From NCBI GenBank assembly GCA_965368975.1, contig CBDUPA010000034.1:1-33958 (forward strand): a stretch of DNA of 33,958 bases. The letters run 5' to 3'. The translations under genes and the position numbers were made by a program. Positions 3 through 33,958 of the stretch are shown here, piece after piece. The notes below the pieces were generated by a model. The model saw only the letters and a program-made list of their open reading frames with translations. It did no database searches and had not been told where the DNA came from. This DNA comes from an uncultured bacterium (lineage in GTDB: Bacteria > Acidobacteriota > Thermoanaerobaculia > Multivoradales > JAHZIX01). Position 1 is the first letter of the stretch; the number at the start of each line of letters is the position of its first letter.

Positions 3-1328
3 GTGACGTACACACCGACCGCGGACTACAACGGTTCGGACTCGTTCACCTACACCATCGACGACGGCAACGGTGGCACCGCCATTGGCACGGTCAACGT
101 GACGATCACGGCCGTCAACGACGCACCGACGGCGAACGCGGACGCTACGACGACGCAGGTCAACAAGACCGTCACCATCGCAGTCCTCCTCAACGACACC
201 GACGTCGACGGTCCGTCTCTGACCATCAACGCGGTGACTCAAGGCACCAACGGTAGCGTTACCAACAACGGCGACGGCACCGTGACCTACGATCCGAACA
301 ACGGCTTCAAGGGGACGGATACCTTCACTTACACCGTCAGCGACGGCGCGGGTGGTTCCAACATAGGTAATGTCACCGTCTCCGTCGACGCACCGCCGCG
401 CGTCAGTCCGGATCTGCAGGTGCTCTACGACTTCGACGAAGGCACCGGTAGCACCGTCAATGACATCTCCGGCGTTGGCACACCGGTGGATCTGACCATC
501 CAGAACACCGCCAACGTGACCTGGCTAACCGGTGGATTGTCCGTCGACAGCGCCACCCTCATCACCTCCGGCAGCGCGCCGACCAAGGTCATCACGGCTT
601 GCCAGGCGAGTGACGAGGTCACCGTCGAGGCTTGGGTTCTGGCGGATAGCACCAGCCAGTTCGGACCGGCGCGGATCGTCAGCATCTCGGACAAGCCGAG
701 CAAGGTGGACGTCAGCCTCAACCAGGAAGGTGGTGAGTTCAACTTCGCCGTGCAGACGACCTCGACCAACGGCAGTGGACACACATCCACTTCTGGGACT
801 GGAACTGTTGGCATCGTCGACTTGCAGCACGTGGTCTACACCCGTGACAGTGGTGGAACGGTGCGGATTTACATCGATGGCGTCGAGGTCGCGACCGACA
901 GCATCGGCGGGACGTTCAACCGCTGGCGTAACTATCCGTTGAACCTGGTCAACGAGTCGACCAACAACCGTGCGTGGCTCGGTGAGCTGCACCTGGTGGC
1001 GATCTACAGCCGCGCGCTGACGGCCGCCGAGGTGGAGCAGAACTACTACGCCACTGAGACGGCTGTGGGCGATCCGGTCGCCTTCGACGACAGCGCTTCG
1101 ACTACGATCAATACCGCGGTCAACGTCGCCGTGCTGGCCAACGACAACCGCGCGATGGATGTGACGGCTGTCACGCAGGGCGGCAACGGTTCTGTAGTTC
1201 TGAACGGCGATGACACCGTTACCTACACCCCCAACGCTGGCTTCACCGGCGCCGACGCCTTCACCTATACAGTGAGCGATGGTGCGGGCGGGACGGATAC
1301 CGCGACGGTGACCGTCGTGGTGCAGTAG
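3..1328 (+). CDS. Large surface/secreted protein, C-terminal part only (5' end outside the window): cadherin-like Ig repeats (Big_9/tandem-95 type) flanking a LamG/concanavalin A-like jellyroll domain
   Basis: Frame open from the window start. Repeats of 'TYTP...G.D.FTYT(I/V).DG.GG...G.V.V' and 'NDAP.A.AD'. Central domain 'LYDFDEGTGSTVND...TVEAWV...QHVVYTRD...RIYIDG...LGEL...AIYSRALTAAEV' matches LamG-like folds. Stop TAG at 1326-1328. Confidence 0.85.
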   Translation: MTYTPTADYNGSDSFTYTIDDGNGGTAIGTVNVTITAVNDAPTANADATTTQVNKTVTIAVLLNDTDVDGPSLTINAVTQGTNGSVTNNGDGTVTYDPNNGFKGTDTFTYTVSDGAGGSNIGNVTVSVDAPPRVSPDLQVLYDFDEGTGSTVNDISGVGTPVDLTIQNTANVTWLTGGLSVDSATLITSGSAPTKVITACQASDEVTVEAWVLADSTSQFGPARIVSISDKPSKVDVSLNQEGGEFNFAVQTTSTNGSGHTSTSGTGTVGIVDLQHVVYTRDSGGTVRIYIDGVEVATDSIGGTFNRWRNYPLNLVNESTNNRAWLGELHLVAIYSRALTAAEVEQNYYATETAVGDPVAFDDSASTTINTAVNVAVLANDNRAMDVTAVTQGGNGSVVLNGDDTVTYTPNAGFTGADAFTYTVSDGAGGTDTATVTVVVQ

Positions 1329-10226: not shown

Positions 10227-10227
10227 G

Positions 10228-19185: not shown

Positions 19186-19213
19186 GGCTGCTCGCTAGAC
19201 TGGCTTCAGTAGA

Positions 19214-19624
19214 CTAAAGGTTGCCGGCGAGGAATTCCGAAGGTGACAACGCAGCCACAGGACTCTTTCCGAAGTCTGCACTGTTCCGGCTAATGACAGC
19301 CTGGCAGCCGGCTTCCTCAGCTGAAACTGAGACAACAGCATCTTCGAAGTCGTCAAATCCCAAGTCCAATGCGCGCTCGAAGACAGGCGCCCCGGCAGGA
19401 GCAATCGTGAACAGTTCGAGCAGCCAGCGCAGCGCTGTCTCGGGTGGCAAGACCGAGTCGTATCGTTTCGTCAGGTAGTAGATGGTGGTGATGCCGTGAG
19501 TCGGGAGGTAGCCGGTGAGCTTTCCCTGCGCAACCAGATCCAGAATCAGGGCAGAATCTCGGAAGTGCAGTTCGCGTTTGAGTAGAACGTCGAGAACGAC
19601 GTTCAAGTCGAGCATCACCTTCAA
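19214..19624 (-). CDS. vapC: PIN-domain ribonuclease toxin (VapC-like, PIN_3 type)
   Basis: MKVMLDLNVVLDVLLKR...DFEDAVVSVSA...VISRNSADF carries the conserved acidic PIN residues. The TTG start overlaps the antitoxin stop. Confidence 0.85.
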   Translation of the reverse strand: MKVMLDLNVVLDVLLKRELHFRDSALILDLVAQGKLTGYLPTHGITTIYYLTKRYDSVLPPETALRWLLELFTIAPAGAPVFERALDLGFDDFEDAVVSVSAEEAGCQAVISRNSADFGKSPVAALSPSEFLAGNL

Positions 19625-19886: not shown

Positions 19887-22800
19887 TCAACTACTGGCCC
19901 GCGCCGCTTCCAGCTTCGCCAACCGCTCCCGCGCCTTGACGACCGCCTGATCGTCTTTCCCCCGCCCCTGACGCGCGTTCTCGAGCGCGTCCAACAGCAC
20001 CTTCTCGGCCCGCGCGAACTCCCCTCGCTGGATCAGCGCTTCGCCCAGCAGTCCCATCGATGCCACCACGTGCGAAGAATTCGGTGGAATCTGGTTGCGG
20101 GCGAAGGTAGCTAGCGCTTGCTCGAGTTGATCTTGCGCTTCGGCGGCCTTGCCCTGCTCCAACAAGGCGTGTGCCAGGTTCTTGCGCACGACGCCCAGGT
20201 TTGCGTGATCCTCGGGTAACGTTTGCGTGAAAGCCTCCAGAGCTTGGCGGAAATTGGACTCTGCACCGGCAGCGTCGCCCAGGAAATTCAGGGTGACGGC
20301 CAGGTTGTGGCTGACCGTCGCGACACGGGTGTTGTTGGGGCCTAGTAAGTCCCGCAGGATGACCAGTGCCTGCTCGTAACCCTCTTGAGCTGCTTCCAAG
20401 TCGCCGCTCTGCCGATGGACGAAAGCCAGATTGCTGAGCACGGTGGCTACCTGGAGGTGCTGCTCGCCGAAGGAGGCGCGATAGACACGGAGGGCCTCGG
20501 TGAACTGGGCTTCGGCACCTTCTAGATCGTCTTGGGCCTGTAGTGCCTGTGCCAGCGTGTTGCGGGCGGCGGCGACGCGCACGTAGTCGTCGCCCAAGAG
20601 ATCGCTCCACATTTCCAGCGCTTGTCTGGCCAGGTCTTCGGCGTCTTCGAGTTCACCTTGCTGGTGGCGCACCATGGCCAGGAGGTTCAGCGAGTCGGCG
20701 ACGTTGGGGTGCTGCTCGCCGAATAGCTCTCGCCGGTTGTTCAGGGCTTGTCGGGCGAGTTCCTCGGCCTCCTGAGAAGCGCCTTGGGCGTAGGCGAGGG
20801 CAGCCAAATTGTGGCGTACGGTGGCCAGATCCGGGTGTTCGGTCTCATAGACGTCGGCTTGAATGTCCAGGGCCTCGGTGAATACCTCCCTTGCCTGCTC
20901 CAGGTTCCCTTGCTCATCATGGAGCAAGCCCAGGTCGTTGAGCACGACGGCGACCTTGGGATGCCGGTCACCGAAGAGGTTTCGATAGAGATCCAGGCTT
21001 TGTGCGTAGGCATCCGAGGCTTCGTCGTGCTTGCCCTGGGCACGCAGCAGGCCACCTAGCTCGGCATAGCCTCCGGCAATCAGATGGTGGCGTTCACCGA
21101 GCACCTCGCCGGCCAGTTGCAGGCTCTGGTACCAGTACTCTTCGGCCATCGCGAACTTGCCCAGCCGGTGATGGGCTCGGGCCAGGCGCGAGAGGGCACG
21201 CACGCCTGTCTCAGTGTCGATCTTGCCGGTGTTGCGCAGCATGACCCAGGCAGCGCGGAAGTTCTCGAGAGCCTTGGCATACTCGCCGTCCAGAATTGCG
21301 TGGTCTCCAAGATCCAGCAGACTCTGCGCGATCTCGGGATGCGAAGCCCCATGCAACTGGCGGCGTACCACCAGCGCTTCTCGGATCAGTGGCTCGGCTT
21401 CGGCGAGCAGGCCCAGTCGCAGGTAGACGCGGCCCATGGTCGCGAGTAGCCGGGCTTGCAGCCGGGGTTGATCTCCCAGCCGGCTGCGGATGTCCAGAGC
21501 ACCGCGGTCGAGCAGCTCGCGAGCGGTCACGCGCTCGCCAAAGGTGCGGTCCGGGTCCGAAGTTTCGAACAGGCCCTCGAGAAAGTGGGTGACTTCTTCG
21601 CCGTGCTCTTGCTCCTGCAGGATCGTCGCACGCTGGACCAGCAAGGCGATAGTGAAGGCGGAGAAGGCAAGAAACGCCGCGACTGCCAGCGCCACCGGCC
21701 AACGATGTCGTCGGACGAACTTGCCGGAGCGGTACCAAAAGGTCTGGTGACGGGCGTTGACCGGGCGACCCAGCAGATAGCGATGAACGTCGGCGGAAAG
21801 CTCCTGGGCCGAGAGGTAGCGGTCGCGCGGATCCTTGCGCAGTGCCTTGGCGACGATGTCGTCCAGGTCCTTGCGCAGGTAGCGCTCCAGCTGGAGCACG
21901 TCGAGGCCCCGCTGTGCGGCGACGCCGCGAGCCCACTCTGCGGAGTGTGAACTCTCGCGTGCTCGCCTCAAGGCGCGTGAAGGAACCTCGGGAGTCTCGA
22001 AGCAGACAGCCTGGATGAAGGCGTGAGGCGAGGTCTCCGAGAGCTGAAAGGGGCGTCGGCCGGCGAGCAGAAGATAGAGCAGGGTACCGAGTGCGTAGAT
22101 GTCGCAGGCGGTTGTGATCGCCTGTCCTTGCATCTGTTCTGGGCTGGCGAATTCGGGGGTCATTGGCGCCATCGCGGTACCCGTGAGCATCTCCTTGTAG
22201 TCGCTGTCGAGTGAGCCCAGCAGCTTGGCGATGCCGAAGTCCAGCAGCTTGAGCTGGCCATCGGCCGTGACCAGAATGTTCGCTGGCTTCAGGTCGCGGT
22301 GGACGACCAGGTTCTGATGCGCGAAGTGGACGACGCTGCACACTTGGCGAAAGAGTTCCAGGCGCTGCCGTAGCGATAGGCGGCGTTGGTCACAGTAGCG
22401 GTCGATCGGTTCGCCCTCGACGTACTCGAGTACCAGGTACTGCTGGCGGTCATCGCTGAGCCCGCCGTCCAGCAGACGCGCGATCGACGGATGCTCGAGG
22501 TCCGCCAGGATCTGGCGCTCACGGCGGAAGCGCTGTTCGACTTCGGGTCGCGTCAGCTCCGGGTGTAGGATCTTGATCGCGACCTGGGTGCTGTAAGCAC
22601 CGTCGACCCGTTCCGCGCGATACACGGTACCCATGCCGCCGCGTCCGAGCACCTCGCGCACCTCGTAAGGACCGATTCTGGAATCCGTGGCCGACTCGGT
22701 TGCCGAGAGGCTCAGCACGGGACCGTCCAGGAAAGTACTGGGGTCGGCGTGTTGTTCGAGGAGTTCGCGCACCTCCTCGAGGACAGCCTGATCCGCCTGG

Positions 22801-22901
22801 CTGGATGCAAGGAACGCGGCTTGGGCTTCCGGCTCGAGTTCCAGAGCTTGGTGGAAGAGGTGGCGGGCCTCCTGCCACTGTTCGGCGTCTAACTTGGGCA
22901 T
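19887..22901 (-). CDS. Hanks-type membrane Ser/Thr protein kinase with a C-terminal TPR array
   Basis: GRGGMGTVY, VAIK, HRDLKPANIL, DFGIAK, ASPEQ. TM helix WPVALAVAAFLAFSAFTIALLV, then many 'HP.VA..LN.L' 42-aa TPRs. The N-terminal 'QWQEARHLFHQALELEP...AFL' helix typical of ECF-linked kinases sets the start at ATG 22901. Confidence 0.95.
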   Translation of the reverse strand: MPKLDAEQWQEARHLFHQALELEPEAQAAFLASSQADQAVLEEVRELLEQHADPSTFLDGPVLSLSATESATDSRIGPYEVREVLGRGGMGTVYRAERVDGAYSTQVAIKILHPELTRPEVEQRFRRERQILADLEHPSIARLLDGGLSDDRQQYLVLEYVEGEPIDRYCDQRRLSLRQRLELFRQVCSVVHFAHQNLVVHRDLKPANILVTADGQLKLLDFGIAKLLGSLDSDYKEMLTGTAMAPMTPEFASPEQMQGQAITTACDIYALGTLLYLLLAGRRPFQLSETSPHAFIQAVCFETPEVPSRALRRARESSHSAEWARGVAAQRGLDVLQLERYLRKDLDDIVAKALRKDPRDRYLSAQELSADVHRYLLGRPVNARHQTFWYRSGKFVRRHRWPVALAVAAFLAFSAFTIALLVQRATILQEQEHGEEVTHFLEGLFETSDPDRTFGERVTARELLDRGALDIRSRLGDQPRLQARLLATMGRVYLRLGLLAEAEPLIREALVVRRQLHGASHPEIAQSLLDLGDHAILDGEYAKALENFRAAWVMLRNTGKIDTETGVRALSRLARAHHRLGKFAMAEEYWYQSLQLAGEVLGERHHLIAGGYAELGGLLRAQGKHDEASDAYAQSLDLYRNLFGDRHPKVAVVLNDLGLLHDEQGNLEQAREVFTEALDIQADVYETEHPDLATVRHNLAALAYAQGASQEAEELARQALNNRRELFGEQHPNVADSLNLLAMVRHQQGELEDAEDLARQALEMWSDLLGDDYVRVAAARNTLAQALQAQDDLEGAEAQFTEALRVYRASFGEQHLQVATVLSNLAFVHRQSGDLEAAQEGYEQALVILRDLLGPNNTRVATVSHNLAVTLNFLGDAAGAESNFRQALEAFTQTLPEDHANLGVVRKNLAHALLEQGKAAEAQDQLEQALATFARNQIPPNSSHVVASMGLLGEALIQRGEFARAEKVLLDALENARQGRGKDDQAVVKARERLAKLEAARASS

Positions 22902-22915
22902 TCTCTTGCCATCCT

Positions 22916-22947
22916 GTGATCCGATCGGTACGCGTCTTGCGCCAACC
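22916..22947 (+). promoter_or_regulatory. Putative ECF sigma promoter, copy 1 (GTGATCC-N16-GCGCCAACC)
   Basis: GTGATCC 22916-22922, 16-nt spacer, GCGCCAACC 22939-22947. Upstream of CDS 23071. Confidence 0.7.
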
Positions 22948-23070
22948 CTATCGCACAGCTGGGAACTGTGGCTGAGTTCGCGTTCCAAGGTCGATGTGAT
23001 GAGGAACCCAGCAGGGCACTCCGCGAGCGGTGTCCGGGTTCCGTCAGGTCTCGAAAGGAGCACCGATAGC

Positions 23071-24672
23071 ATGTGCAGCGCTACTCTACGAAGTTCTTCT
23101 CCTCACCTCCGTTTGATTGTACGGACCCTCGCGGGTCTCTTCCTGGCTTCAATGACGTCCACTGCCTCAGCACAGATCACCAAGGTGGTCGGGTGGGGGC
23201 AGACCGAGGTGACGATCACGGCGGCTGAGTTGGGACTCGATCATTTGATGCCACTGGCCCAGACAGTCTCGGTCGCCAGTTCGCACGGCTCGTTGCAACT
23301 CGACGGCACGGATCTGGTCTACGCGCCGTCTTCCCGCTTCTGGCAGATTGGTTTCGACACATTCCAGGTGTCCGTGGGTGGCAAGGCGCCCAGGGATGTC
23401 TTCCTGATCGCCAACTTGCGCGAAGAGCCTCTGGCCGGGGATGCCTTCCAGGGTTGTGTCTTGGGCGGAGACTGGACCTGGACAGGGGATCTCAGCGAGC
23501 TTCAGCTGCAGTCCTCGAGCGTGACCAACGACTGTTTTCTGAGAGTCCAAGCCGGCGGCACGGGTATCGGGGTTCGCACGCGCCCGCAAGCCCTGACCGG
23601 ACCGGGTGGTGGCAACACGTCCATCTCTCTGGATCCTGGAATCGGTGGTGGTACCGAACTCCCCTTCGGTCTACCCGACGGGATGGAGGTGCCTATTGTG
23701 GCTGGCGTGACGCAGGATGGCAGGGTGGTCTTCGAGTTGGTGCTGACCGGCTCACAGCTACTTGCCCGAGCCTACCGGGCTGATGGATCGGCTGTCACTT
23801 CGTCGCCTCTGGCGCTCAGTGATGAAGCTCAACACCTCGAGATGGACTGGTGGTTCGCCAGCGCATCGGGAGCCCGTGACGGCGGTGTGATGCTGTCGCG
23901 CAACGGTGTCTTCGAGACAGCCGTGACCGGTGTCGACAACTTCGGCCTGCTGGGGTTGCCATGGTCCTGGGAATTTGGGCTGCTGGGGCCGACCAACGGA
24001 GGCCAAGGAGTCTTGGCCTTGCTCGATCCCGAGGTTTGGGTCAGTCCACGGCAACCGATGTTCGAACCCATCTTTGCCGACAGCGCGGCGGGTTTCTCGC
24101 TGAGTCGCTGGAGCGATCTGATCAACCCGGACAAGATCATGGTTTCGACCAAGAATTCCACGCAAAACCCTCAGTTCCTGCTCGGTGTTTCCAATGCGCG
24201 GCAGGTTGCACTGGTCGACGATTCACCGGTGGCCGAACGTCACTTCCGTGCCCGCTTCTCGCTCGGTGTGGATCAAATGGCGCCGGGTACGGGCGTCATG
24301 ACGATCTTCGCGGCTCTAGGACAATCCAGGGAGAAGCCCGTGTTCAGTGTCCAGTTGCGATTCAACCAGAACCTGGGGGCCTACCAAGTGCGCACTCGGA
24401 CACGTCACGGAGCTGGCGAGGTCGTCTCGCCCTGGGCTAGCGCTCCGCCGGCCGTGGCTACCCTCGAGGTGTCCGTGCAGTGGTGGGCGGAGACACAGGC
24501 TGCGGCAGCTGATGGCGGTCTGCGCCTCGAGGTGGGAGGGGCCGAGCTCGTGGAGTTGGGGCAGCTCACGAGCACAACCCTCCGGGTCGAGGAGGCTTGG
24601 ATCGGCGCTGTGCTGATACCCAAGGGTTGGCAGGGTGAGCTGCTCTTCGACGATCTGTGCGCCTGGCGCTAG
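23071..24672 (+). CDS. Secreted hypothetical protein, paralog A (small cadherin-like segment plus two related beta-rich domains)
   Basis: AAGGAG RBS before ATG 23071. Signal peptide ending in ASA-Q. 'HGSL...LVYAP...FW.IGFDTF' is Big_9-like. Two internal 'WW....GA.DGG..L' units. Ends DDLCAWR. Confidence 0.8.
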   Translation: MCSATLRSSSPHLRLIVRTLAGLFLASMTSTASAQITKVVGWGQTEVTITAAELGLDHLMPLAQTVSVASSHGSLQLDGTDLVYAPSSRFWQIGFDTFQVSVGGKAPRDVFLIANLREEPLAGDAFQGCVLGGDWTWTGDLSELQLQSSSVTNDCFLRVQAGGTGIGVRTRPQALTGPGGGNTSISLDPGIGGGTELPFGLPDGMEVPIVAGVTQDGRVVFELVLTGSQLLARAYRADGSAVTSSPLALSDEAQHLEMDWWFASASGARDGGVMLSRNGVFETAVTGVDNFGLLGLPWSWEFGLLGPTNGGQGVLALLDPEVWVSPRQPMFEPIFADSAAGFSLSRWSDLINPDKIMVSTKNSTQNPQFLLGVSNARQVALVDDSPVAERHFRARFSLGVDQMAPGTGVMTIFAALGQSREKPVFSVQLRFNQNLGAYQVRTRTRHGAGEVVSPWASAPPAVATLEVSVQWWAETQAAAADGGLRLEVGGAELVELGQLTSTTLRVEEAWIGAVLIPKGWQGELLFDDLCAWR

Positions 24673-24680
24673 CCCTATGG

Positions 24681-25286
24681 ATGAGTACGTCCATGTTGAC
24701 TGATCTTCCACGCGACGAGGACGTTACCGGGCTCCTGCAGCTATGGAGCCGTGACGGTGACCGGCGGGCACTCGATCTCCTCATGCCACTGGTTTCGCAG
24801 GAGTTGCAACGGATGGCCCTGGGGTTCTTCCGCCACGAGCGACCCGATCACACGCTGCAGCCCACAGCGCTGGTCAACGAGGTGTACCTACGCCTCGTGG
24901 ACCGGCGCAGGGCGACTTGGCAGGATCGGGTTCACTTTCTGAGCTTTGCCGCCCGTACGATGAGGCGCGTGCTGGTCGACCACTCGCGCAAGCACAAGGC
25001 GCTCAAGCGCGGGGCAGGAGCACAGCAGGTGGCTCTGCCGGAAGGGGCCGTCGTCACCTGGCAGCGCGAAATCGACTACCTGGCTCTGGACGAGGCCTTG
25101 ACGTCCCTGGCGCAGCTCGATGCTCGTCAAGCCAGGATCGTCGAGTTGCACTACTTTGCGGGTCTCACCATCGAGGAGCTTGCGACTGTGATCGAAATCG
25201 GTACCGCAACGGTGAAGCGCGATCTAGCGATGGGCCGTGCTTGGTTGCGACGCGCACTCGAGCCGATACCGGACTCCGCCGGCTAG
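24681..25286 (+). CDS. ECF RNA polymerase sigma factor, TIGR02999/ECF43-like (copy 1)
   Basis: DVTGLLQLWS...ERPDHTLQPTALVNEVYLRL...WQDRVHF...MRRVLVDH.R...KRG...YFAGLT.EE.A...TATVKRD...RAWL. Start is ATG 24681 or 24693. Confidence 0.92.
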   Translation: MSTSMLTDLPRDEDVTGLLQLWSRDGDRRALDLLMPLVSQELQRMALGFFRHERPDHTLQPTALVNEVYLRLVDRRRATWQDRVHFLSFAARTMRRVLVDHSRKHKALKRGAGAQQVALPEGAVVTWQREIDYLALDEALTSLAQLDARQARIVELHYFAGLTIEELATVIEIGTATVKRDLAMGRAWLRRALEPIPDSAG

Positions 25287-25332
25287 ACCTCTGCGCTGCG
25301 CCCCGCAGCTGGCGGCTCTTTCTTCCGCTACC

Positions 25333-25364
25333 GTGATCCGGTTTTCATGCGTCTTGCGCCAACC
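25333..25364 (+). promoter_or_regulatory. Putative ECF sigma promoter, copy 2
   Basis: GTGATCC 25333-25339, 16-nt spacer, GCGCCAACC 25356-25364. Upstream of CDS 25480. Confidence 0.7.
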
Positions 25365-25479
25365 TCAACGCAGCGCCTTGAACTCGTAGAATCAAACAAG
25401 GTAGTTGCCATTGACATCCAGTCCCTGGGGGAGATGGCTTTCTCGGGGCTCACTTCATCTCGAAAGGAGAGCCTGAATC

Positions 25480-27000
25480 ATGCGCAGTACCCTGTTCTTC
25501 GAATCGCCCCCTCGTACCTCGGGCCTCGGACCATGGCTGATTGGGATGTGTCTCATTCTGCTACTGACTCCCATGACGATGGCTCAGACGGTCCAAGTCG
25601 TGCCCTGGGCGCAGCCGCTGATACTCATCTCGCTGAATCAGGAGAAGCTGGAGGCTGGAGTCGAAGCTGCCGCCTACCCCTTGACCTGGACCGATCCTCG
25701 GAGAGGTCAGTTGAAGCAAAGCGGGGGCGGTCTGGTCTACATGCCGGATGAGGAGTTCTGGGAGGTGGGCTTTGACAGCTTTCACCTTCGCGAGTCCAGT
25801 ACTTCCAAGCAGTACGAGACCGTCTTCCTGATCGCTGGTCTGCGAGAAGAGCCACAGGCCCTAGGCGCCTTGGAGGGCTGTGTGCTGCACCCGGATTGGT
25901 TCTTGCTGGGTGATGCGCAGGTGGTGCAGAGGCCCGTTGCCAAGAGTTCCACATGCCTGTTCGAAATGACGCTTGGTGCCGATGTGCCGACGACGCTGGT
26001 CGGTCCCAAGGCCCAGACCGGGCCGGGCGGCGGCAACACATCGATCTCACTGGATCCGGGGACTCATCGGTCGCCTGGCTCCTTCGAGCTCTTACCGGGG
26101 ATGGAGACTCCCGTGGTGGCTGCGATTACGTCCCAGGGAGAAACCGTCTTCGAGCTGGTCCTGCGGGAGGGACTGGAGTTGTTCGTACGCGCGTACCACA
26201 GTGACGGCACCGTCGTAATGTCGAAGCCAGTGCAGACAGCTCAGGTCCGTCAGGATCTCGAGCTGGAGTGGTGGTTCGCGAGCACTGAAGGAGCGAGCGA
26301 TGGTGGTCTGCTCCTGGTGCGCGACGGTGTGCTGGAGACCGCAGTCATCGGAATCGACAACTTCGGTTTGCTGGGTCGCGCCTGGAACTGGCACTTTGGC
26401 TTGCTGGCTCCGACCGTGGGAGCGAGCGGTACGCTCGCCTTGGAGCAACCGGAGGTCTGGACCAGTCCCCGTCAGCCGGTCTATCAGCCGCTGTTCGCCA
26501 ACGGCACCGACAACGTCTACAGCGCTCAGTCCGCGGCGCTGCGCGATGCCTCGCCCAGTGCGGAGCGTCACTACCGGGCCAGGTTCTTCGTTGGCTTCGA
26601 GGGTGTGCGAAGTGAAGCGGGAGGCGCCTGGACCCTGTTCCGAGCCGACGACCCGGGTCGCGGCCTGGTGCCGTTCGATGTGCAGGTTCGCAGCAGTCTG
26701 TTTCGAGGCCTCGAGGTTCGTGCCCGCGCTTGGAATGGCTCGATGATGGTCGAAACGCCGTGGGAGCCCCTGCCCGAGGGGCGGTCGAGTCACGACGTTG
26801 CCGTTCAATGGTGGGCGCAGTCGGACGCTCAGACGCCCAACGGCGGTCTGCGGTTGTGGGTCGAAGGCGCCCTGACCGGAGGCGTGTCGGGGCTGGCCAA
26901 TGCCTCAGTGCGGGTCGAGGAGACCTATCTCGGTGTCTTGTCGGCCCCCCTGGGCGGTGGAGGAGAGCTGGTCATTCACGACTTCTTCGCTTGGCGCTAG
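25480..27000 (+). CDS. Secreted hypothetical protein, paralog B
   Basis: GAAAGGAG RBS and a signal peptide ending in TMA-Q. Shares with paralog A the blocks VFLIA.LREEP, TGPGGGNTSISLDPG, DNFGLLG..W.W.FGLL, PEVW.SPRQP, AERH.RARF and VQWWA, and the AWR C-terminus. Confidence 0.85.
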   Translation: MRSTLFFESPPRTSGLGPWLIGMCLILLLTPMTMAQTVQVVPWAQPLILISLNQEKLEAGVEAAAYPLTWTDPRRGQLKQSGGGLVYMPDEEFWEVGFDSFHLRESSTSKQYETVFLIAGLREEPQALGALEGCVLHPDWFLLGDAQVVQRPVAKSSTCLFEMTLGADVPTTLVGPKAQTGPGGGNTSISLDPGTHRSPGSFELLPGMETPVVAAITSQGETVFELVLREGLELFVRAYHSDGTVVMSKPVQTAQVRQDLELEWWFASTEGASDGGLLLVRDGVLETAVIGIDNFGLLGRAWNWHFGLLAPTVGASGTLALEQPEVWTSPRQPVYQPLFANGTDNVYSAQSAALRDASPSAERHYRARFFVGFEGVRSEAGGAWTLFRADDPGRGLVPFDVQVRSSLFRGLEVRARAWNGSMMVETPWEPLPEGRSSHDVAVQWWAQSDAQTPNGGLRLWVEGALTGGVSGLANASVRVEETYLGVLSAPLGGGGELVIHDFFAWR

Positions 27001-27014
27001 CGGTTTCGAATAGC

Positions 27015-27617
27015 ATGGTGACCATGGGAGAACGCTCGCAAGGGCACGACATCACAGCGCTGCTGCAGCAGTGGAGCCGTGGCGGAAACCGGGAGTCACT
27101 CGACCTCTTGATACCTCTCGTCTCTCGGGAGCTGCACCGCATTGCCCGCGGCTTCCTGGGTAACGAACGCGCGGACCACACGCTGCAGCCGACAGCGTTG
27201 GTCAACGAGGTCTACATGCGCCTGGTCGACCGACGCAAGGCGACGTGGCAGGATCGCGTCCATTTCCTGAGCTTCGCGGCGCGCACCATGCGCCGGATTC
27301 TGGTCGATCACTCGCGCAAGCAGAAAGCGCAGAAGCGAGGGGCAGGTGCCCAGCAAGTGACCCTGGATGAGTCCTCGGCTTTCGAACTGCAGCGAGGGGT
27401 CGACTACCTGGCCCTGGATGAAGCGTTGTCGGGCCTGGCGGAGATCGACTCTCGCCAGGCCCGCATCATCGAGCTGCGGTACTTCGCGGGTCTGACCATC
27501 GAGGAGATCGCGGCCGTGGTCGAGGTCGGCACCGCGACCGTCAAGCGGGACTTGGCCATGGCCCGGGCCTGGTTGCGGCGCGAGCTGGAGCCCGATCCCA
27601 CGGCCGCTTCCAGCTAA
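27015..27617 (+). CDS. ECF RNA polymerase sigma factor, TIGR02999/ECF43-like (copy 2)
   Basis: Same motifs as copy 1, about 75% identical over the core by manual alignment. Start is ATG 27015 or 27024. Confidence 0.92.
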   Translation: MVTMGERSQGHDITALLQQWSRGGNRESLDLLIPLVSRELHRIARGFLGNERADHTLQPTALVNEVYMRLVDRRKATWQDRVHFLSFAARTMRRILVDHSRKQKAQKRGAGAQQVTLDESSAFELQRGVDYLALDEALSGLAEIDSRQARIIELRYFAGLTIEEIAAVVEVGTATVKRDLAMARAWLRRELEPDPTAASS

Positions 27618-27629
27618 AGTCGTCTTCGG

Positions 27630-27661
27630 TTGAGCCGTTTTTTTCGGCGTTTGCGCCAACC
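27630..27661 (+). promoter_or_regulatory. Putative ECF sigma promoter, copy 3 (TTGAGCC variant)
   Basis: TTGAGCC 27630-27636, 16-nt spacer, GCGCCAACC 27653-27661. Followed by a short terminator-bounded non-coding stretch. Confidence 0.65.
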
Positions 27662-27665
27662 TGGG

Positions 27666-27791
27666 CAGACGTACGTTTCACAGACTTGCGTACGTTCACA
27701 GACCCGTAGAGACAGCGGTGGCATGCACGACCGCCGCGATCTCTCCTTTCGTGGCGCTGGCCCAGTACCCAACGGGCCGCGCCCTTTTTTT
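27666..27791 (+). ncRNA. Candidate ECF-dependent small RNA (~125 nt) with an anti-Shine-Dalgarno linker
   Basis: Bounded by promoter copy 3 and an intrinsic terminator. Contains the direct repeat CGTACGTT(T)CACAGAC x2, a hairpin at 27715-27737 and the linker CTCTCCTTTCG (27741-27751). The 5' end is estimated. Confidence 0.45.
27753..27791 (+). terminator. Rho-independent terminator
   Basis: Stem GGCGC(T)GGCCC / GGGCCGCGCC with a 10-nt loop, followed by T7 at 27785-27791. Confidence 0.8.
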
Positions 27792-27855
27792 GTTCGGCCT
27801 GTCGTTGCGCAACTCAGCGCGCGAGTAACTACGTGGAGCGAGTGGCGCGGCTACC

Positions 27856-27887
27856 GTGATCCCGTTTTCCCGCACCCTGCGCCAACC
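27856..27887 (+). promoter_or_regulatory. Putative ECF sigma promoter, copy 4
   Basis: GTGATCC 27856-27862, 16-nt spacer, GCGCCAACC 27879-27887. Lies after the terminator and 54 nt upstream of ATG 27942. Confidence 0.7.
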
Positions 27888-27941
27888 CTGCCAGAAGTCG
27901 ACCGCCTCCGGTCATGGATGAAACATGCAGGGAGCTCTACC

Positions 27942-30900
27942 ATGAGATGTCTTCGAGACCTGACGACCTGTCCTCTACTCACCAATCTACGATCGGCCAC
28001 GATGAGGTGCTTGCTGATTCTGGGGCTGCTCTTGCTGCCCTTGACGGCCACTGCTCAGAAGGAAACCGATCCCGGCAATGACGCTACCGTGGTCAGCCAC
28101 ACCTTGCCGACCCTGATGGAGTGTGGCTCCAAGCAGGTCGTTTCGGTGACGGTACAGAACACCGGTAAGTCCACCTGGAGTGGCAAGGCGGCCTACGGTC
28201 TCATGGGCGTGAACAATACGGCGTTCGAGGCTGAAGGCACGGCGCAAGGTGCGCAGCTGCCGGCCGACGTCGATGTCGCGCCCGGGCAGAGCTACACCTT
28301 CGAGCTCGACTTCGTCGTGCCTTCGGCGCCCGGCAACCACACTTCGCAATGGCAGATGACCCAGGGGGGGACAAGCCAGTTCGGCGGCATCGCGTCGGAG
28401 ACGACCAAGGTTGCCTGCCAGATCTCCGAGACCGATGCCGCTGAGGTGGTGAGCCATACGATTCCAGCCTTCATGGAGTGCGGCACCACCCAGGACGTCT
28501 CGATCACCTTCCAGAACACCGGTACGTCGACGTGGCGTCCGGAGCACCTGTATGTGCTGCGCTCGCCCGGCAATCAAGATCCGATGTCGAGCAAGACGGA
28601 GTGGTCGCTGCCCGCCGGGACCGCCGTGTCACCTGGGCAGAGCTACACCTTCCAGCTGCCACTGACCGCGCCGGCGGTGGCTGGCAGCTACAGCACGGAC
28701 TGGAAGATGTTGCACAAGCGGCTGCGCTGGTTCGGGGAAACCGCGCTCAGCACGGTGAACGTGTTGTGTGTCGGTGGTGAGGTGCCGGACGCGGCGGTGG
28801 TCGTCGTCGATCCGCCCAACAACTACGGCACCTGGGTCAAGGAGGAATGCGGCACCGAAACGTCGATCTTCGTGACCCTGCAGAATACGGGCAAGGCCCT
28901 ATGGGGCGCCGACACCTTCCTGGCCGCCACCGGCGGCTCGGATCCCTACCGCACCGACGCCGATCCGCGCGTGCCGTTGCCGCACAGCGTGTTCCCGGGC
29001 GAAACCGTGACCGTCGAGGTACCGCTCAGCATGCCGCCGGACGTCCAGGTCGCGCAGACCAGCGAGTGGCAGCTGGTGCGAGGCGCCAGCGAGTGGTTCG
29101 GTGAGATCGCCACCAAGCAGCTACTCGTGCGCTGCCAGCTCAACGAGAGCGACGATGCGCGCGTGGTATCGCATACCTTCCCCGACCTGATGGAGTGCGG
29201 CAGCACGCAGCGGATCAGCGTGACCATGGAGAACACCGGTACCAGCCGCTGGCGCAAGGATCTGAAGATGCGCTTGGGGGACCCGGGCAACAAGGATCCC
29301 TTCAAGGTGACGCATCGGGTCGACCTTCCCGCCGGTCTCGAGATTGGACCGGGCGGCGCGCACACCTTCGAGTTCGACATCAAGGCACCCGATGCAGCGG
29401 GCACCTACACCACCGATTGGCGCATGGTCCACGAGTGGGTGCGCTGGTTTGGTGAGACCGCGGCCAAGCAGATCGACGTGACGTGCAGCGACTACGGCGT
29501 CGAGTTCCTGCAACCACGCGCGCAAGTGCTCGCGGACGGCGGGAAATTCGACTGGGGCGTTCTGCACGAGGGCGAGGCACCCCGGCCCTTCACCTTCCGC
29601 GTCGCCGCGCCCGACAACTTCAAGGGCGAGCTCTACAACCTGCGTGTGGTCAGCGAGGAAGGGCCGGTGGCGGTCTACTTCGGCCAGCTGAGCAGCGGCA
29701 GTGGCAGCCTGCAGACCGGCGCCGAGGTGCCGGCTGAGCAGGGTCTGGATATCGGCGGCACGCTAGCGGTGAAGCCGGAGATCAAGGAGCTCAAGGCCGG
29801 CGAGCAAGTGGCCTTCCGGGCGGTGATCGCCTTTGATCACAGCCTCGGAGAGTCCTTCGAGTTCGAGATCGTTGGCCTGGCGCAGAAGGCCAGCTGCAAC
29901 GGCACGGACAGCTGGAGCTTCGTGTTCGAGGACTATCCGGGACCGTTCAACGAGGTGATTCCCGAGGAGCAGTTGCCGCGGCAGCTCGCCTACCGCGGTC
30001 GCATCACCAACAACGACGGCGCCCAGTGCCTGGAGATTCCGGAGAGCGGCATCAATGTCACCGTGGTCCAGCGACCCTTCGGCGTCAATACCGACCTGGA
30101 GGTGTTCGGCGGTCCGACCATCGTGCTGCAGCCGGGTGAGAGCTATGTCTTCCGGGTCCTGATCAACGCCACCGTGTCCGCCGAGAGTGGTGAGTACTCG
30201 GCCAACATCGGCGTCAGTCCATCGGGCACCTCGGTGGTCGACACACTCAACATCTCGGGTACCTTCGAGATCCAGGGGCCGGACCTGTCACTCGACAACG
30301 TCAGTGTTCGTTTGCTGTCCTCCGGTATCTCGGTAGGGCATTTCGGTATCTTCACGATCGATCCCGTAGACGCCTCGACCAACATCGATTTCGAGGTGCG
30401 CAACGACAATCCGGACGACATGCACGTCGAGGCCATGTCGGCCAGCATCTCCGGCCCAGCCGCCAGTGGTTTGAGCTACAACCCGACGCCAGTCTCGGCG
30501 GTGGTCCCGGCAGGGTTCCCGTCGGTGTTCGGCGGCCAGCTCCAGGTACTGAGTAGCGCGGTGCCCGGCGATTTCACGATTCACGTCAACTTCCGCGTCA
30601 CCGATGGTGACTTTACACCGGAGTTCGACGAGCTCTTCTCCTTCGACATCCAGGGCACCTTGACTGCCTGCGGTGGCGGAGGCAACTGTGGTCCCATCGT
30701 CAGTGTCGAGGACCAGAACGGCAACAGCGTGCGTGGTACCCACCGCCTCAACCTGGCCAACGAGGGTACCCACGATCTGGTGTTCAAGATCTTCAACATC
30801 GGGGACGAAGAGCTGAGCGTCAACCCGGCGTTGCAGCTGTCCGGCGACGGGCGCTTCAGCGTCCAGTCGTCACCGTCACCAACGACCGTCCCGCCGGATG

Positions 30901-33900
30901 GCGCACAGACTTCCAACTTCACGCTGCGCTTCAACGCTGACGGCACCGGTGTCAATGACACCTTCGCCACCAACGTGACGATCAATGGCAATGGTGCCAA
31001 CACCCCGTACACCTTCACGCTGGAGGTGACGACACGACCACCGATTCCGCTGGTCGTGGAGGTGATCGGTTTCGTGACGGTCGACAACCAAGTGGATCTC
31101 GGCACGCACGAGCAGCTCCCGTTGCTGCCGGTCATCCGCATCACGAACCCGACATCGGACTTCTACTACGTCAAGAGCTTCCGCACCCTGCAGTCGCAGG
31201 GGGGACCGCTGGAGTGGACCTGGGAGTCGCCGGTACCTGCGAGTTCGGAGAACAGCAGCGCCTGGCGAATCGACAAGGATGGTGGCCAGCTGCACGCCGG
31301 GGGCAAGATCGACCTCAACGGCGATCCCGGTGACGTCAACGGCACCTACACCTTCAACTTCTCGTTCGAGTTCAACGACGGACGCTACGGTACCTACAGT
31401 ACCTATAACCTGGCGATCAAGGGCGAACTGGACGGGGTCTACAACCCTGCCATAGACGCGCCGGTAATCGACTGCGAGGATCCCGACAACGTTTGCGTCT
31501 CCAATTTCTGCGGTGCCGTGCAGTCGATCTTCGACGATCAACCGGTAGCTGCCTCGGTCTGCGTCGCCTCGGCGCTGGCTACCTACTGGGGTTGCCTGGG
31601 TTGCGGTTCCTCCAACACGGCCTGCTGGGCGATCTGTGGAGTCGGCATCATCGGCTCCCTGGGTTGCGGTCTGGTCGCGGACGATCTGATCGAAGACCTG
31701 GCGCAGGCGGTGATCGACACAAGAGCCTGCTACTGCGACACCTTCGGCGAGTTCTGCGAGGAGACGTACTACATCGGCTACGAGGTGACGAACCTACCGG
31801 TTGGTACAGCGGTCAATGTACGGTCCAGGTGTCGAACCACGGCTGGGCTCGACATCCAGACCGTGGAGACGGTCAGCCTCAGTAACTCGCTGGACTTCGA
31901 CCTGATCCGTTGCCCCAAGTCGGCGATCTACGAGTTGTGGACCGACCCGGTGCAGGTACTGCCCGGCAACACCCCGTACCGCTGCACCCTGGCCAACCCG
32001 CGCCCAGGTGACCGGCCGGAGATCCCGGAGTACAACGGCCTTCTCGACACCCACTTCACGGGAGTCTTCGACTGCGGCTGCACCGACCCGACCGGCTGCG
32101 GCCAGTTCTACACGCTGGTTGGCAGTGCGCAAGACCTACAGCCAGGTGACGCGATCACCGTGGTGGCCAACCTGGAAGGAGATCATCCGACACAGATCTC
32201 CGCCACGGTAACCGTGACTCAGAATGGCCAGTTCCAGTTCTTGATCCCGGTGCCGGAGTCCGACTCCTACGTGCTGACGATCGAGAACAAGAACGACTAC
32301 CCGCAGTGTACCGTGGAGCCGACCGGCAACCCGATCAGCGGTCCCGGCAACGTGGTGGACATCGCGCGCCTGAGCTGCGACTCGACGCGGCCCAACGTGC
32401 GCATCCTGGTCCCAGCGGACGGTGACACGGTGCAGCCGAATCCGTCCACGGGAGCGATTCTGGTACAAGCCGTCGCTGGCGACGCCAACGGCATCCGCCA
32501 TGTGATTTTCTACGAGGATGGCGTGCCGATCGGCACGGCGACTTCGGCGGGCAATGTGTACGAGATCCAGTGGGTCCCGAGCGGTTCGGGAACGCGTACT
32601 CTGCAAGCACTGGCCGAGAACATACCCGGGGTCACGACCTTCTCTGACCCGGTCAGTGTTACGGTCACCGGCACCGTTGCCTGCGACAATGACACCCAGC
32701 CGCCCACCATCGTCCGGGTCTTCCCGGCTGCAGGTGAAGCGGCGCCGCAGGGCCTGGGTGGTTCTCTGACCCTGGAAGCCGAGGTCGTCGACGACACCGG
32801 CATGAACCACGTGGACTTCTACCTGGACGGCAACAAGGTGACCGTCTTTGGCAATGGTCCGCTGTTCCTGTTCACCGCACCGCAGGTCAGCCTGGGGGCG
32901 CACACCCTACGGGTGGTTGCCGTCGACGTCTGCGGCAAGCCACGCGAGATCGCTCAGTACGACTTCACCGTGGTCGAGTCGGATCCGACCCTGGCTGCCG
33001 GTGCGCTGAACGTTGCCGACTGCTCGATCCTCTACGGCTTTGCCAGCGACATCAACCACACTAATTCGGTGTTGGTCGAGTTCTACAAGGGTGGGCCGCG
33101 CGGCAGCGGTACGCTGGTCGGACAGGACCTGGCCAACGGCTCGTGCACCGGGCTACCCGGGGATCCCAACCAGTGCTTCTCGCTGTCGACGCCGGCAGCG
33201 CTGAAGACCGGCTTCCCGGAGACCGTCTACGCCCACGCTCGCGATATCGATACCCAGGGTCAGCCGACCGGAGCGTGGCCGCAACTGCTGCTGTCGCCCA
33301 AGACCATCACCTGCGAAGACTCCGGCGGTACCGGCAATCCTCCGCCGATTCCCGCTGGGGTCTCGGCCAGCGACGGTGCCTACACCGACCGTGTACGGGT
33401 GACCTGGAACGCATCCTCGGGCGCCTCCGCCTACGAGGTCTACCGCAACAGCGTCAACAACAGTTCCACCGCGACGATGATCGAATCGGACGCATCGACG
33501 ACGCTCTACGACGACATGGACGTGCAATCCGGGCCGCTCTACTACTACTGGCTCAAGGCCAGGAACGGCGATGGTTCGAGTGGCTTCAGCACCGTGAACA
33601 CGGGCTATGCCAGTACGGTGACGGTCAACAATCACCTGCCAGATGGCACGCTGGACGTAGCGGACTGCGATCACGTCGCTGGTTGGGTACGTGACGCGGA
33701 CTACACCGGTCGCACGCAGGCCCACATCTACCGTGACGGTCCGGCGGGTGGCGGTGGCACGGTGGTGGCGACGATCTGGGCGGACCTGACTCGCCCGGGT
33801 CTACCCTTCCCAGACCAGGACCATGGCTTCGATTGGTCTGTGCCGGCGGGGTCGATCCCGCACGGTACGCCGATCTACGTCTACGGCCTGAACGTCGACT

Positions 33901-33958
33901 CCAACGGTGACTTCGACGGCGACAACACGCTGCTCAACGGCTCTCCGATGAGCTTCAA
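27942..33958 (+). CDS. Giant secreted multidomain protein, >2005 aa, 3' end outside the window: 4x NBR1-like Ig, several ASH/choice-of-anchor-D-like Ig, a Cys-rich domain, 2x Big_7-like Ig, FN3 and two 'G.LD.ADC..V.GW..D' repeats
   Basis: I translated frame +3 by hand and found no stop from 27942 to the window end. GGAG RBS 7 nt upstream. Signal peptide ...MRCLLILGLLLLPLTATA-Q (alternative starts 27918 and 28002). Absent from the ORF track because it has no stop within the window. Confidence 0.9.
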   Translation, partial: MRCLRDLTTCPLLTNLRSATMRCLLILGLLLLPLTATAQKETDPGNDATVVSHTLPTLMECGSKQVVSVTVQNTGKSTWSGKAAYGLMGVNNTAFEAEGTAQGAQLPADVDVAPGQSYTFELDFVVPSAPGNHTSQWQMTQGGTSQFGGIASETTKVACQISETDAAEVVSHTIPAFMECGTTQDVSITFQNTGTSTWRPEHLYVLRSPGNQDPMSSKTEWSLPAGTAVSPGQSYTFQLPLTAPAVAGSYSTDWKMLHKRLRWFGETALSTVNVLCVGGEVPDAAVVVVDPPNNYGTWVKEECGTETSIFVTLQNTGKALWGADTFLAATGGSDPYRTDADPRVPLPHSVFPGETVTVEVPLSMPPDVQVAQTSEWQLVRGASEWFGEIATKQLLVRCQLNESDDARVVSHTFPDLMECGSTQRISVTMENTGTSRWRKDLKMRLGDPGNKDPFKVTHRVDLPAGLEIGPGGAHTFEFDIKAPDAAGTYTTDWRMVHEWVRWFGETAAKQIDVTCSDYGVEFLQPRAQVLADGGKFDWGVLHEGEAPRPFTFRVAAPDNFKGELYNLRVVSEEGPVAVYFGQLSSGSGSLQTGAEVPAEQGLDIGGTLAVKPEIKELKAGEQVAFRAVIAFDHSLGESFEFEIVGLAQKASCNGTDSWSFVFEDYPGPFNEVIPEEQLPRQLAYRGRITNNDGAQCLEIPESGINVTVVQRPFGVNTDLEVFGGPTIVLQPGESYVFRVLINATVSAESGEYSANIGVSPSGTSVVDTLNISGTFEIQGPDLSLDNVSVRLLSSGISVGHFGIFTIDPVDASTNIDFEVRNDNPDDMHVEAMSASISGPAASGLSYNPTPVSAVVPAGFPSVFGGQLQVLSSAVPGDFTIHVNFRVTDGDFTPEFDELFSFDIQGTLTACGGGGNCGPIVSVEDQNGNSVRGTHRLNLANEGTHDLVFKIFNIGDEELSVNPALQLSGDGRFSVQSSPSPTTVPPDGAQTSNFTLRFNADGTGVNDTFATNVTINGNGANTPYTFTLEVTTRPPIPLVVEVIGFVTVDNQVDLGTHEQLPLLPVIRITNPTSDFYYVKSFRTLQSQGGPLEWTWESPVPASSENSSAWRIDKDGGQLHAGGKIDLNGDPGDVNGTYTFNFSFEFNDGRYGTYSTYNLAIKGELDGVYNPAIDAPVIDCEDPDNVCVSNFCGAVQSIFDDQPVAASVCVASALATYWGCLGCGSSNTACWAICGVGIIGSLGCGLVADDLIEDLAQAVIDTRACYCDTFGEFCEETYYIGYEVTNLPVGTAVNVRSRCRTTAGLDIQTVETVSLSNSLDFDLIRCPKSAIYELWTDPVQVLPGNTPYRCTLANPRPGDRPEIPEYNGLLDTHFTGVFDCGCTDPTGCGQFYTLVGSAQDLQPGDAITVVANLEGDHPTQISATVTVTQNGQFQFLIPVPESDSYVLTIENKNDYPQCTVEPTGNPISGPGNVVDIARLSCDSTRPNVRILVPADGDTVQPNPSTGAILVQAVAGDANGIRHVIFYEDGVPIGTATSAGNVYEIQWVPSGSGTRTLQALAENIPGVTTFSDPVSVTVTGTVACDNDTQPPTIVRVFPAAGEAAPQGLGGSLTLEAEVVDDTGMNHVDFYLDGNKVTVFGNGPLFLFTAPQVSLGAHTLRVVAVDVCGKPREIAQYDFTVVESDPTLAAGALNVADCSILYGFASDINHTNSVLVEFYKGGPRGSGTLVGQDLANGSCTGLPGDPNQCFSLSTPAALKTGFPETVYAHARDIDTQGQPTGAWPQLLLSPKTITCEDSGGTGNPPPIPAGVSASDGAYTDRVRVTWNASSGASAYEVYRNSVNNSSTATMIESDASTTLYDDMDVQSGPLYYYWLKARNGDGSSGFSTVNTGYASTVTVNNHLPDGTLDVADCDHVAGWVRDADYTGRTQAHIYRDGPAGGGGTVVATIWADLTRPGLPFPDQDHGFDWSVPAGSIPHGTPIYVYGLNVDSNGDFDGDNTLLNGSPMSF

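Follow-up and report, generated by a model that had tools for sequence, protein, structure and literature searches.

Sigma factors of the extracytoplasmic function (ECF) group ECF43 have lost the DAED motif and carry a conserved threonine, within STTA in EcfP and QTTA in the group consensus, and phosphorylation of this threonine by a neighbouring Hanks-type kinase provides the charge for binding to core polymerase (PMC8999054, PMC13147305; here and below, papers are cited for the parts drawn on). In the two described pairs, EcfP-PknT of Vibrio parahaemolyticus and EcfK-PknS of Xanthomonas citri, the sigma gene lies beside a gene for a transmembrane Hanks-type kinase. When the two are co-expressed in Escherichia coli, PknT phosphorylates EcfP (PMC13147305). 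Here we analyzed a 33,958-bp stretch of DNA (the window, which is the entire contig CBDUPA010000034.1, C34) from a 7.13-Mb acidobacterial genome of the order Multivoradales (GCA_965368975.1; 59 contigs, 65.4% G+C). It encodes two neighbouring ECF43-like sigma factors, ECF1 and ECF2, and a kinase, and it carries four copies of a two-part motif, TGATCC-N15-TGCGCCAACC. We consider it likely that this motif is an autoregulated, kinase-gated −35/−10 promoter that is read by the recently duplicated sigma factors. The locus resembles the two proteobacterial pairs in its gene arrangement, in an uncharged threonine motif that replaces DAED, and apparently in having no recognizable anti-sigma factor. 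It differs from them in that the sigma gene is tandemly duplicated, each copy following a gene for a rare secreted protein of predicted beta-sandwich fold; in that the kinase has TPR repeats past its membrane helix; and in that the predicted targets are giant proteins with immunoglobulin (Ig)-like repeats, not polymyxin-resistance or type VI secretion genes.

The first half of the motif and its spacer have a direct precedent in promoters of the RpoE/ChrR type. TGATCC-N16-CGTA is both the consensus derived by chromatin immunoprecipitation for PSPTO_1043 of Pseudomonas syringae and the start-site-mapped promoter of RpoE2 in Shewanella oneidensis (PMC5507510, PMC4336711). The motif in the window shares with these promoters an identical −35 hexamer, the class of rigid spacer, a −10 element starting with CG and a position suited to autoregulation of the sigma operon. 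Unlike them, it has (T)GCGCCAACC as its −10 element, with CGCC one base further away, and the sigma factors here are of the TIGR02999 type and linked to a kinase, not bound by ChrR. A separate RpoE/ChrR-type regulon in this genome was considered and set aside, as TGATCC-N16-CGTA gives 9 matches versus 6-9 at neighbouring spacers and is not enriched. In the parts of the literature covered by our search, a published promoter consensus for ECF43 was not found; a predicted ECF43 motif may be contained in the supplements of PMC7826278 (Text S2, Table S2), in which case the motif is perhaps already in print.

The motif was proposed in a first-pass annotation as four exact intergenic copies on the plus strand with a 16-nucleotide (nt) spacer and an invariant second half. 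This description holds: KTGAKCC-N16-GCGCCAACC matches the window four times, at 22916, 25333, 27630 and 27856, always on the plus strand, always between genes and always with exactly 16 nt before GCGCCAACC, and it is absent from 100 dinucleotide shuffles of the window. Since a T precedes GCGCCAACC in all four copies, the conserved unit is better written as the 31-base TGATCC-N15-TGCGCCAACC, with TGAGCC as the first hexamer of copy 3. The T-runs noted in copies 2, 3 and 4 are likewise present (T4, T7 and T4, beginning 2-3 nt past the first hexamer); they are absent from copy 1 and from the four sites found outside the window. The CTACC noted upstream of copies 2 and 4 precedes these two only, that is, two of eight sites genome-wide. 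In Bacillus subtilis, T-tracts close to the −35 element (tgaAACnTTTT) tune which ECF factor uses a promoter (PMC5758882). The T4-T7 runs in copies 2 to 4 resemble this arrangement; here the tract occurs in only three of eight sites.

The copies, which we call P1 to P4, are arranged as follows. P1 (22917..22947, plus strand) lies between the start of the kinase gene (22901, minus strand) and that of sec1 (23071..24672, plus strand), which encodes a 533-amino-acid (aa) signal-peptide protein without a Pfam or NCBIfam match. The gene for ECF1 (24681..25286, plus strand) starts 8 nt past the sec1 stop codon, so that sec1 and ECF1 form an operon. P2 (25334..25364, plus strand), a perfect copy with the T4 tract past the −35 hexamer, lies between the ECF1 stop codon (25286) and sec2 (25480..27000, plus strand), which encodes a 506-aa paralogue with 43% identity to sec1 and is followed by the gene for ECF2 (27015..27617, plus strand). 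P1 and P2 thus head the sec1-ECF1 and sec2-ECF2 operons. P3 (27631..27661, plus strand; TGAGCC-N15-TGCGCCAACC with the T7 tract) begins 13 nt past the ECF2 stop codon, in front of a candidate small RNA. P4 (27857..27887, plus strand), a perfect copy with a T4 tract, lies between a terminator whose T-run ends at 27791 and the ATG, at 27942, of a gene for a giant signal-peptide protein of at least 2005 aa (27942..33956, plus strand) with N_BRCA1_IG, Big_7 and fn3 Ig-like repeats, which runs off the contig. The assignment of copies to both sec-ECF operons, the candidate small RNA and the giant gene in the first-pass annotation is thus supported. All eight sites of the genome show a pyrimidine-purine step at +5/+6 past the motif, a regularity noticed post hoc; it yields predicted starts at 22953 (a G), 25370, 27667 and 27893, with leaders of 118, 110 and 49 nt for sec1, sec2 and the giant gene, respectively. 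A scan of 22700-28100 for the sigma-70 consensus gave no site.

Only 15 nt separate the start codon of the kinase gene from the −35 hexamer of P1; in the related genome G003, codon and hexamer overlap by one base (L032:6385-6392). With the start codon so close to the −35 element, the promoter and leader of the kinase gene must lie antisense within the sec1 leader, an arrangement of overlapping divergent transcription.

A genome-wide search shows how strictly the motif is kept. It gave six perfect and two one-mismatch sites that retain CCAAC at this spacer, eight in total; an unrestricted scan added a third one-mismatch site, on contig C3, with the −10 variant TGCGCCTACC. For the full motif written as TGATCC-Nx-TGCGCCAAC, there were seven matches at x = 15 and none when any of the 15 remaining lengths between 9 and 24 was allowed; spacers 13, 14, 16 and 17 gave no perfect and 0-2 one-mismatch sites each, compared with six perfect and three one-mismatch sites at N15. 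The same 14-base pattern matched once in total in 40 related genomes, and a reversed-pattern control did not match. When the genome was scanned with a position weight matrix (PWM), the eight sites scored 30.3-41.8 bits and the next match 24.0 bits. The motif is therefore real and highly non-random.

Several further matches were rejected. A full-pattern match in genome G013 lies under long open reading frames (ORFs) on both strands and a TGATCC-N17-CGCCAAC match in G005 lies inside a histidine-kinase ORF; both were taken as chance. The PWM matches at C22:419 and C40:28418 fall, by eye, in long ORFs resembling coding sequence for nonribosomal peptide synthetase adenylation domains, and those at C2:303710 and C20:2514 inside other ORFs. 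An excess of TGATCC-N15-TGCGC (36 matches) mostly reflects codon periodicity, as spacers 9, 18, 21 and 24 give 23-24.

The four sites outside the window are C17:137203 (plus strand), C21:93989 (minus strand), C24:1515 (plus strand; C24a) and C24:3387 (plus strand; C24b). C24a precedes a third sec paralogue (C24:1672-3288; 47% identical to sec1), and C24b a giant protein of 2124 aa that is 58% identical to the giant of the window. Behind the site on C17 lies the gene for an unrelated giant (at least 4348 aa). The site on C21 precedes a Cys/Thr-rich peptide (C21:93659-93882, minus strand; L003:7659-7882) of 77 aa as a TTG-start ORF or 74 aa from an ATG. At its N-terminus, this peptide matches NF038153, a model of class I lanthipeptide leaders (25.7 bits, cut-off 22). 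A lanthipeptide synthetase was not seen among the ORFs scanned downstream of this peptide, namely an alpha/beta hydrolase, an ORF without family and a DUF255 thioredoxin-like protein. The proteins read downstream of the sites begin with a signal-peptide-like hydrophobic stretch; the C21 peptide has the lanthipeptide-type leader instead. In the three sec genes the ATG follows the end of the motif at 115-126 nt, and in the two giants that are paralogues at 54-55 nt; this distance is 227 nt at C17 and 76 nt at C21.

The first-pass annotation spoke of a local regulon, which is correct only in part. Four further sites lie on three other contigs, together with two variants on C3; on the other hand, two of these contigs probably flank the window. 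At its right end, C34 matches C24:3-301 over 299 nt with 90.6% identity; at its left end, its first 116 nt match the final 116 nt of C17 with 91.4% identity. Each of these joins falls within tandem repeats of giant-protein genes (window 33559-33958 and 1-400; C24:1-1300; C17:148261-150324), and the end of C17 (C17:148261-150324) contains units of about 279 nt repeated many times. The breaks in the assembly at the ends of C34 are due to these repeats, and a comparison of C34 with the ends of C17 and C24 gave no exact end overlap. From the sequence similarity, the order is probably C17, C34, C24, in which case seven of the eight motif sites would sit in one supercluster. The giant gene of the window then probably continues in C24:3-1298, and the 441-aa C-terminal fragment of another giant at the left end of the window (3..1328, plus strand; Big_9/cadherin-like repeats and Laminin_G_3 by domain search) is probably where the C17 giant (at least 4348 aa), whose gene begins downstream of the site at C17:137203, comes to its end.

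A locus so rich in duplications and repeats raises the question of whether the copies are functionless relics of tandem or segmental duplication, or a small dispersed repeat. P1, P2 and C24a front paralogous genes, as do P4 and C24b, and duplication explains part of the copy number; the earlier statement that tandem duplication alone is insufficient holds in that the C17, C21 and P3 copies front unrelated sequence, and does not extend to these two groups of paralogues. For a relic, the pattern of divergence would be difficult to understand: 16 positions are invariant over the sites, whereas the flanks and most spacer positions have diverged. The first-pass annotation had named occurrence across the genome without regard to gene orientation as the mark of a dispersed repeat, and the whole-genome scan gave the opposite result. 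All eight sites fall between genes and share the orientation of the gene that follows, the ORFs that overlap the C17 and C21 sites have no Pfam support, and there are no other overlapping ORFs there; none of the copies is found within a gene or facing the wrong way. The sites have only the two boxes in common, with unrelated flanks and no terminal repeats. Together with the conservation in a second genus described next, these observations make a relic or repeat very improbable.

The only orthologous locus that we found is in G003, a genome of the same family and another genus. Its layout is the same, with a kinase gene, a divergent sec gene and then an ECF gene, and its kinase has the same architecture as that of the window. 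The G003 sigma factor is 68% identical to ECF2; at E<=1e-66, a search of 299 other genomes of the order gave no match besides this one. This one genome of 299 also has the motif, and has it beside the sigma orthologue: the kinase-sec intergenic region reads TGATCC-N16-TCGCCAAC/TGATCC-N16-TCGCCAACA, with the spacing seen in the window. In an alignment of the regions upstream of the sec genes at P1, P2, C24a and G003, the motif and the GAAAGGAG ribosome-binding site are the only conserved elements, and the core that is common to the two genera is TGATCC-N17-CGCCAA(C). That the motif and its spacing are kept in an intergenic region that otherwise cannot be aligned is the strongest single argument for function, and it speaks directly against a relic.

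The form of the motif further suggests what kind of element it is. An ECF promoter would be expected to consist of two short boxes at a fixed distance of about 16-17 nt and to stand in front of genes in their own orientation, the operons of the sigma factors themselves included. The motif fits this picture, and two unlike halves in fixed orientation are promoter-like rather than operator-like for a dimeric protein. We also considered an operator for a DNA-binding regulator other than a sigma factor, with two unlike half-sites, that would co-regulate genes for secreted proteins. An invariant, G+C-rich box of 10 bp, longer than a typical ECF −10 element, would suit such a site. However, the halves have neither direct nor inverted symmetry, the orientation relative to the downstream gene is the same in 8/8 sites, and the start codon lies anywhere between 54 and 227 nt downstream (with the candidate RNA in place of a start codon at P3), whereas the internal spacing never varies. 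Moreover, the first half and spacer equal a proven type of ECF promoter (PMC5507510, PMC4336711), and the locus conserves no regulator gene besides those for the sigma factors and the kinase in both genomes. We therefore regard an operator as very unlikely.

ECF1 and ECF2 score 190.7 and 208.7 bits with TIGR02999 (curated cut-off 126.15) and 168.7 and 180.6 bits with PF07638; ECF43 members presumably fall under these two models. The two proteins are 75.6% identical and each other's closest paralogue, with at most 54% identity to the 19 other paralogues compared. Both read HTLQPTALVNE in region 2.2, with an uncharged QPTA in place of the canonical DAED in an alignment made by inspection and without the EcfP or EcfK sequences, and the region-4 helix GTATVKRDLAM occurs in both as well as in the orthologue from G003. 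The divergent gene next to P1 and the sec1-ECF1 operon (19887..22901, minus strand) encodes a 1004-aa Ser/Thr kinase of the Hanks type (Pfam scores: Pkinase 162 bits, TPR_12 354 bits). Residues 79-366 form its kinase domain; a hydropathy scan predicts a single transmembrane helix at about 400-425, and beyond this helix lies a TPR-repeat region of about 500 residues (about 480-980). No anti-sigma domain was detectable at the locus with Pfam and NCBIfam, and the sec proteins, which have no family match, carry a signal peptide and no transmembrane segment past the N-terminal signal region; an unrecognized regulator at the locus is possible. The claim that the motif is the ECF promoter of the two TIGR02999 sigma factors is thus supported in silico, short of proof, by rigid spacing, co-orientation, the sigma operons, the adjacent kinase and G003.

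The genome encodes many relatives of this pair, and the promoter might be read by another of its approximately 30 ECF-like sigma factors, with the local sigma operons lying downstream in a cascade and not being autoregulated. There are 31 PF07638-like matches, 20 of them strong (>=105 bits), with near-identical sigma-2.2 regions, and the C17 site has an ECF-kinase operon 2.3 kb away. This neighbour is, with the window pair, the only one to appear when the nearest ECF gene is listed for each site, and its sigma gene is on the other strand, has no upstream copy and encodes a protein with 47-49% identity. No other ECF gene has a copy before its operon, and in G003 the motif co-occurs with the orthologue of ECF1 and ECF2 and lies beside it. 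A different reader is thus improbable in our judgement. Among 21 aligned PF07638-like sigma factors, QPTA is found in 12 and a threonine at that sigma-2.2 position in 19, so the large paralogous set of this genome is presumably kinase-gated; G003 and G005 have 47 and 29 sigma matches at E<=1e-40. Many sigma/kinase pairs run in parallel in this lineage; sister sigma factors of the window pair are encoded, for example, at C2:40985 and C17:134335.

Several observations weigh against an autoregulated promoter read by ECF1 and ECF2. With 31 PF07638-like matches and a threonine in 19/21, the motif is tied to the local pair only through its position and its co-occurrence in one other genome. Given the paralogous genes behind P1, P2 and C24a and behind P4 and C24b, the eight sites amount to about five independent contexts. 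The kinase gene itself has no motif copy. The −35 element TGATCC lacks AAC, which is typical of most ECF promoter groups (PMC5758882), and the −10 box, with 10 invariant bases, is unusually long and G+C-rich for a region that must melt. There is only one orthologous locus for comparison, and a search of genome contigs with sec2 found none; a search with an alignment found only two G003 loci in genome contigs and none in metagenome contigs. In G001, a module with a 59%-identical sigma factor and a divergent sec homologue has no motif in its intergenic DNA. A search of sequencing runs yielded no RNA run with this DNA and a single DNA run (0.05 share). In the same G001 module, a CGCCAAC was not counted as a site, as it falls within coding sequence. 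Which sigma factor reads the motif, where transcription starts, that the kinase acts on the sigma factors and that the RNA exists are our inferences.

In a mechanism modelled on EcfP/PknT and EcfK/PknS, the transmembrane kinase of the divergent gene would sense a signal through the TPR region past its membrane helix and would phosphorylate the threonine of QPTA in region 2.2 of both sigma factors, which could then bind core polymerase. Holoenzyme with ECF1 or ECF2 would start transcription about 6 nt past the motif. The targets would be the two sec-ECF operons, giving positive autoregulation, along with the third sec paralogue and the three giant Ig/cadherin-repeat surface proteins. The lanthipeptide-leader-like peptide would also be expressed, as would, from P3, a terminator-ended RNA of about 125 nt overlapping the 3' end of the ECF2 operon.

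The secreted partner of the sigma factors in this scheme belongs to a rare family. Among 8,000 candidates scored from a library of 5.8 billion proteins, five matched at E<=1e-3, three of them from this genome; the library homologues P0002 and P0004 are encoded on contigs of 3.2-3.8 kb. Full-length relatives in 40 related genomes were restricted to G003 (two) and G001 (one). The C-terminal domain of about 160 residues is more widespread, recurring within many large proteins, with a family-profile match in 21 of the 40 genomes (E<=0.001). An AlphaFold2 model of sec1 built from seven sequences consists almost entirely of beta-strand (mean predicted local distance difference test score 69.4, predicted template modelling (TM) score 0.56), with the best-modelled beta-sandwich regions at about 200-325 and 365-533. 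A Foldseek search with this model gave weak matches (TM 0.18-0.28, identity 7-12%) to laminin/neurexin LG domains, glycoside hydrolases and clostridial neurotoxin receptor-binding domains, which we take to share LamG/ConA-like jelly-roll domains. Judging from the model, the sec proteins are possibly generic lectin-like beta-sandwiches, with no kinship to these matches implied. That they are predicted to be co-transcribed with the sigma factor, here as in G003, hints that they may themselves take part in the signalling loop.

Copy 3 differs from the others in having a candidate RNA behind it. A fold prediction for 27667..27791 (plus strand) gives a small RNA of about 125 nt with three hairpins, with a minimum free energy (MFE) of −51.7 kcal/mol and a z-score of −3.59; 1 of 200 shuffles was as stable. 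The last hairpin (27753-27784), with a G+C-rich stem of 13 pairs in the MFE structure, and the following T7 (27785-27791) form an intrinsic terminator, which a simple terminator scanner with a loop limit of 8 nt missed at 27753-27791 and the fold shows. There is no ORF between P3 and the terminator. The terminator at 27791 must also end the sec2-ECF2 transcript, so that the RNA would come from the 3' end of that unit and bear its own promoter.

Enterobacteria have small RNAs that depend on the ECF factor sigma-E, namely MicA, RybB and MicL, the last of which arises from the 3' part of another unit. The candidate resembles them in the placement of an ECF-type promoter directly before a short, terminator-ended RNA and, in the case of MicL, in its origin from a 3' part; unlike them, it is predicted only, and it has no sequence or Rfam similarity to them. 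In the 5' part of the candidate RNA, 27668-27705 contains an imperfect direct repeat, CGTACGTTTCACAGAC / CGTACGTTCACAGAC. Two palindromic CGUACG copies (CGTACG in DNA) pair with each other to form the first hairpin, and two CACAGAC copies are unpaired in the predicted fold, one in a loop and one in a linker.

Whether P3 drives a free small RNA is a narrow judgement, and we lean slightly towards it. The alternative for this copy, to which we give somewhat less than an even chance, is that P3 is a second, upstream promoter whose structured leader and terminator would limit read-through towards the giant gene, or else a non-functional copy left where the duplicated unit ends. P3 is indeed the weakest copy of the window, with TGAGCC and a PWM score of 34.8 versus 37.8-41.8 for the other three, and the next elements on this strand, within 280 nt, are P4 and the giant gene. 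The candidate RNA has no Rfam match (none at E<=1 in 22800-28000), no second copy in the genome and no clear target complementarity, as a blastn-short search for targets gave only matches of 14-19 nt, at noise level. Against this, a strong terminator with a long G+C-rich stem and T7 separates P3 from P4, and P4 is a perfect promoter of the giant gene's own. In addition, a relaxed copy, TGCTCC-N16-CCGCCAAAAC, occupies the corresponding position in G003, immediately past the stop codon of the sigma gene. A convergent haem-peroxidase-like gene follows, so that there is no ORF for this copy to drive. The relaxed pattern, which was chosen after seeing the site, has only 19 matches in the 8-Mb genome, and the RNA downstream of it in G003 is unrelated in sequence by eye and folds weakly (z −1.91).

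The remainder of the window, to the left of the kinase gene, holds a phosphatidylserine decarboxylase gene identified by family search between 1328 and the kinase. Also upstream of the kinase are a MoxR AAA+/DUF58/BatA/VWA gene set with an ABC-transporter ATPase gene among its members, a STAND-type ATPase with TPR repeats (minus strand) and a PIN-domain gene (minus strand). The MoxR-VWA set, the STAND ATPase and the PIN gene span 4726-16297 and 16542-19624, and none bears the motif. Elsewhere in the genome, C3:180738-191538 (L039:2738-13539, minus strand) contains a tandem array of at least four secreted giants of about 1700 aa with CarboxypepD_reg repeats. Intergenic variants, TGATCC-N15-TGCGCCTACC and TGATCC-N15-TGCGCCTACT, precede the second and third of these genes, and the other two junctions have no copy. 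Both variants differ from the main motif by an A-to-T change in the −10 element, and the two sites could be weak additions to this regulon or could be served by a sister sigma factor.

Three features of the locus are of particular interest: a long, invariant −10 element amid about 20 sister sigma factors, a candidate sigma-dependent RNA from a 3' end, and a very rare secreted partner. A speculative extension, which we think improbable, would join them into a self-contained duplicating module in which the kinase-activated sigma factor turns on its own gene and that of the secreted protein, the secreted protein feeds back on the TPR region of the kinase across the membrane, the sigma-dependent RNA serves as a post-transcriptional arm and the long −10 element insulates the system from the sister sigma factors. 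If true, this would amount to an autocrine or neighbour-sensing loop and to the first small RNA tied to a phosphorylation-gated ECF factor. Its short and strict form also makes the motif a candidate part for orthogonal expression systems.

In summary, knowledge of kinase-gated ECF sigma factors of the ECF43 type comes chiefly from two proteobacterial cases. This locus adds a well-defined candidate promoter, open to test, from a lineage that has received little study. The motif gives a regulatory context to a rare secreted family, to giant Ig-repeat surface proteins and to a candidate small RNA. With about 20 sister sigma factors encoded in the same genome, the locus provides a natural case for how paralogous sigma/kinase pairs avoid cross-talk.

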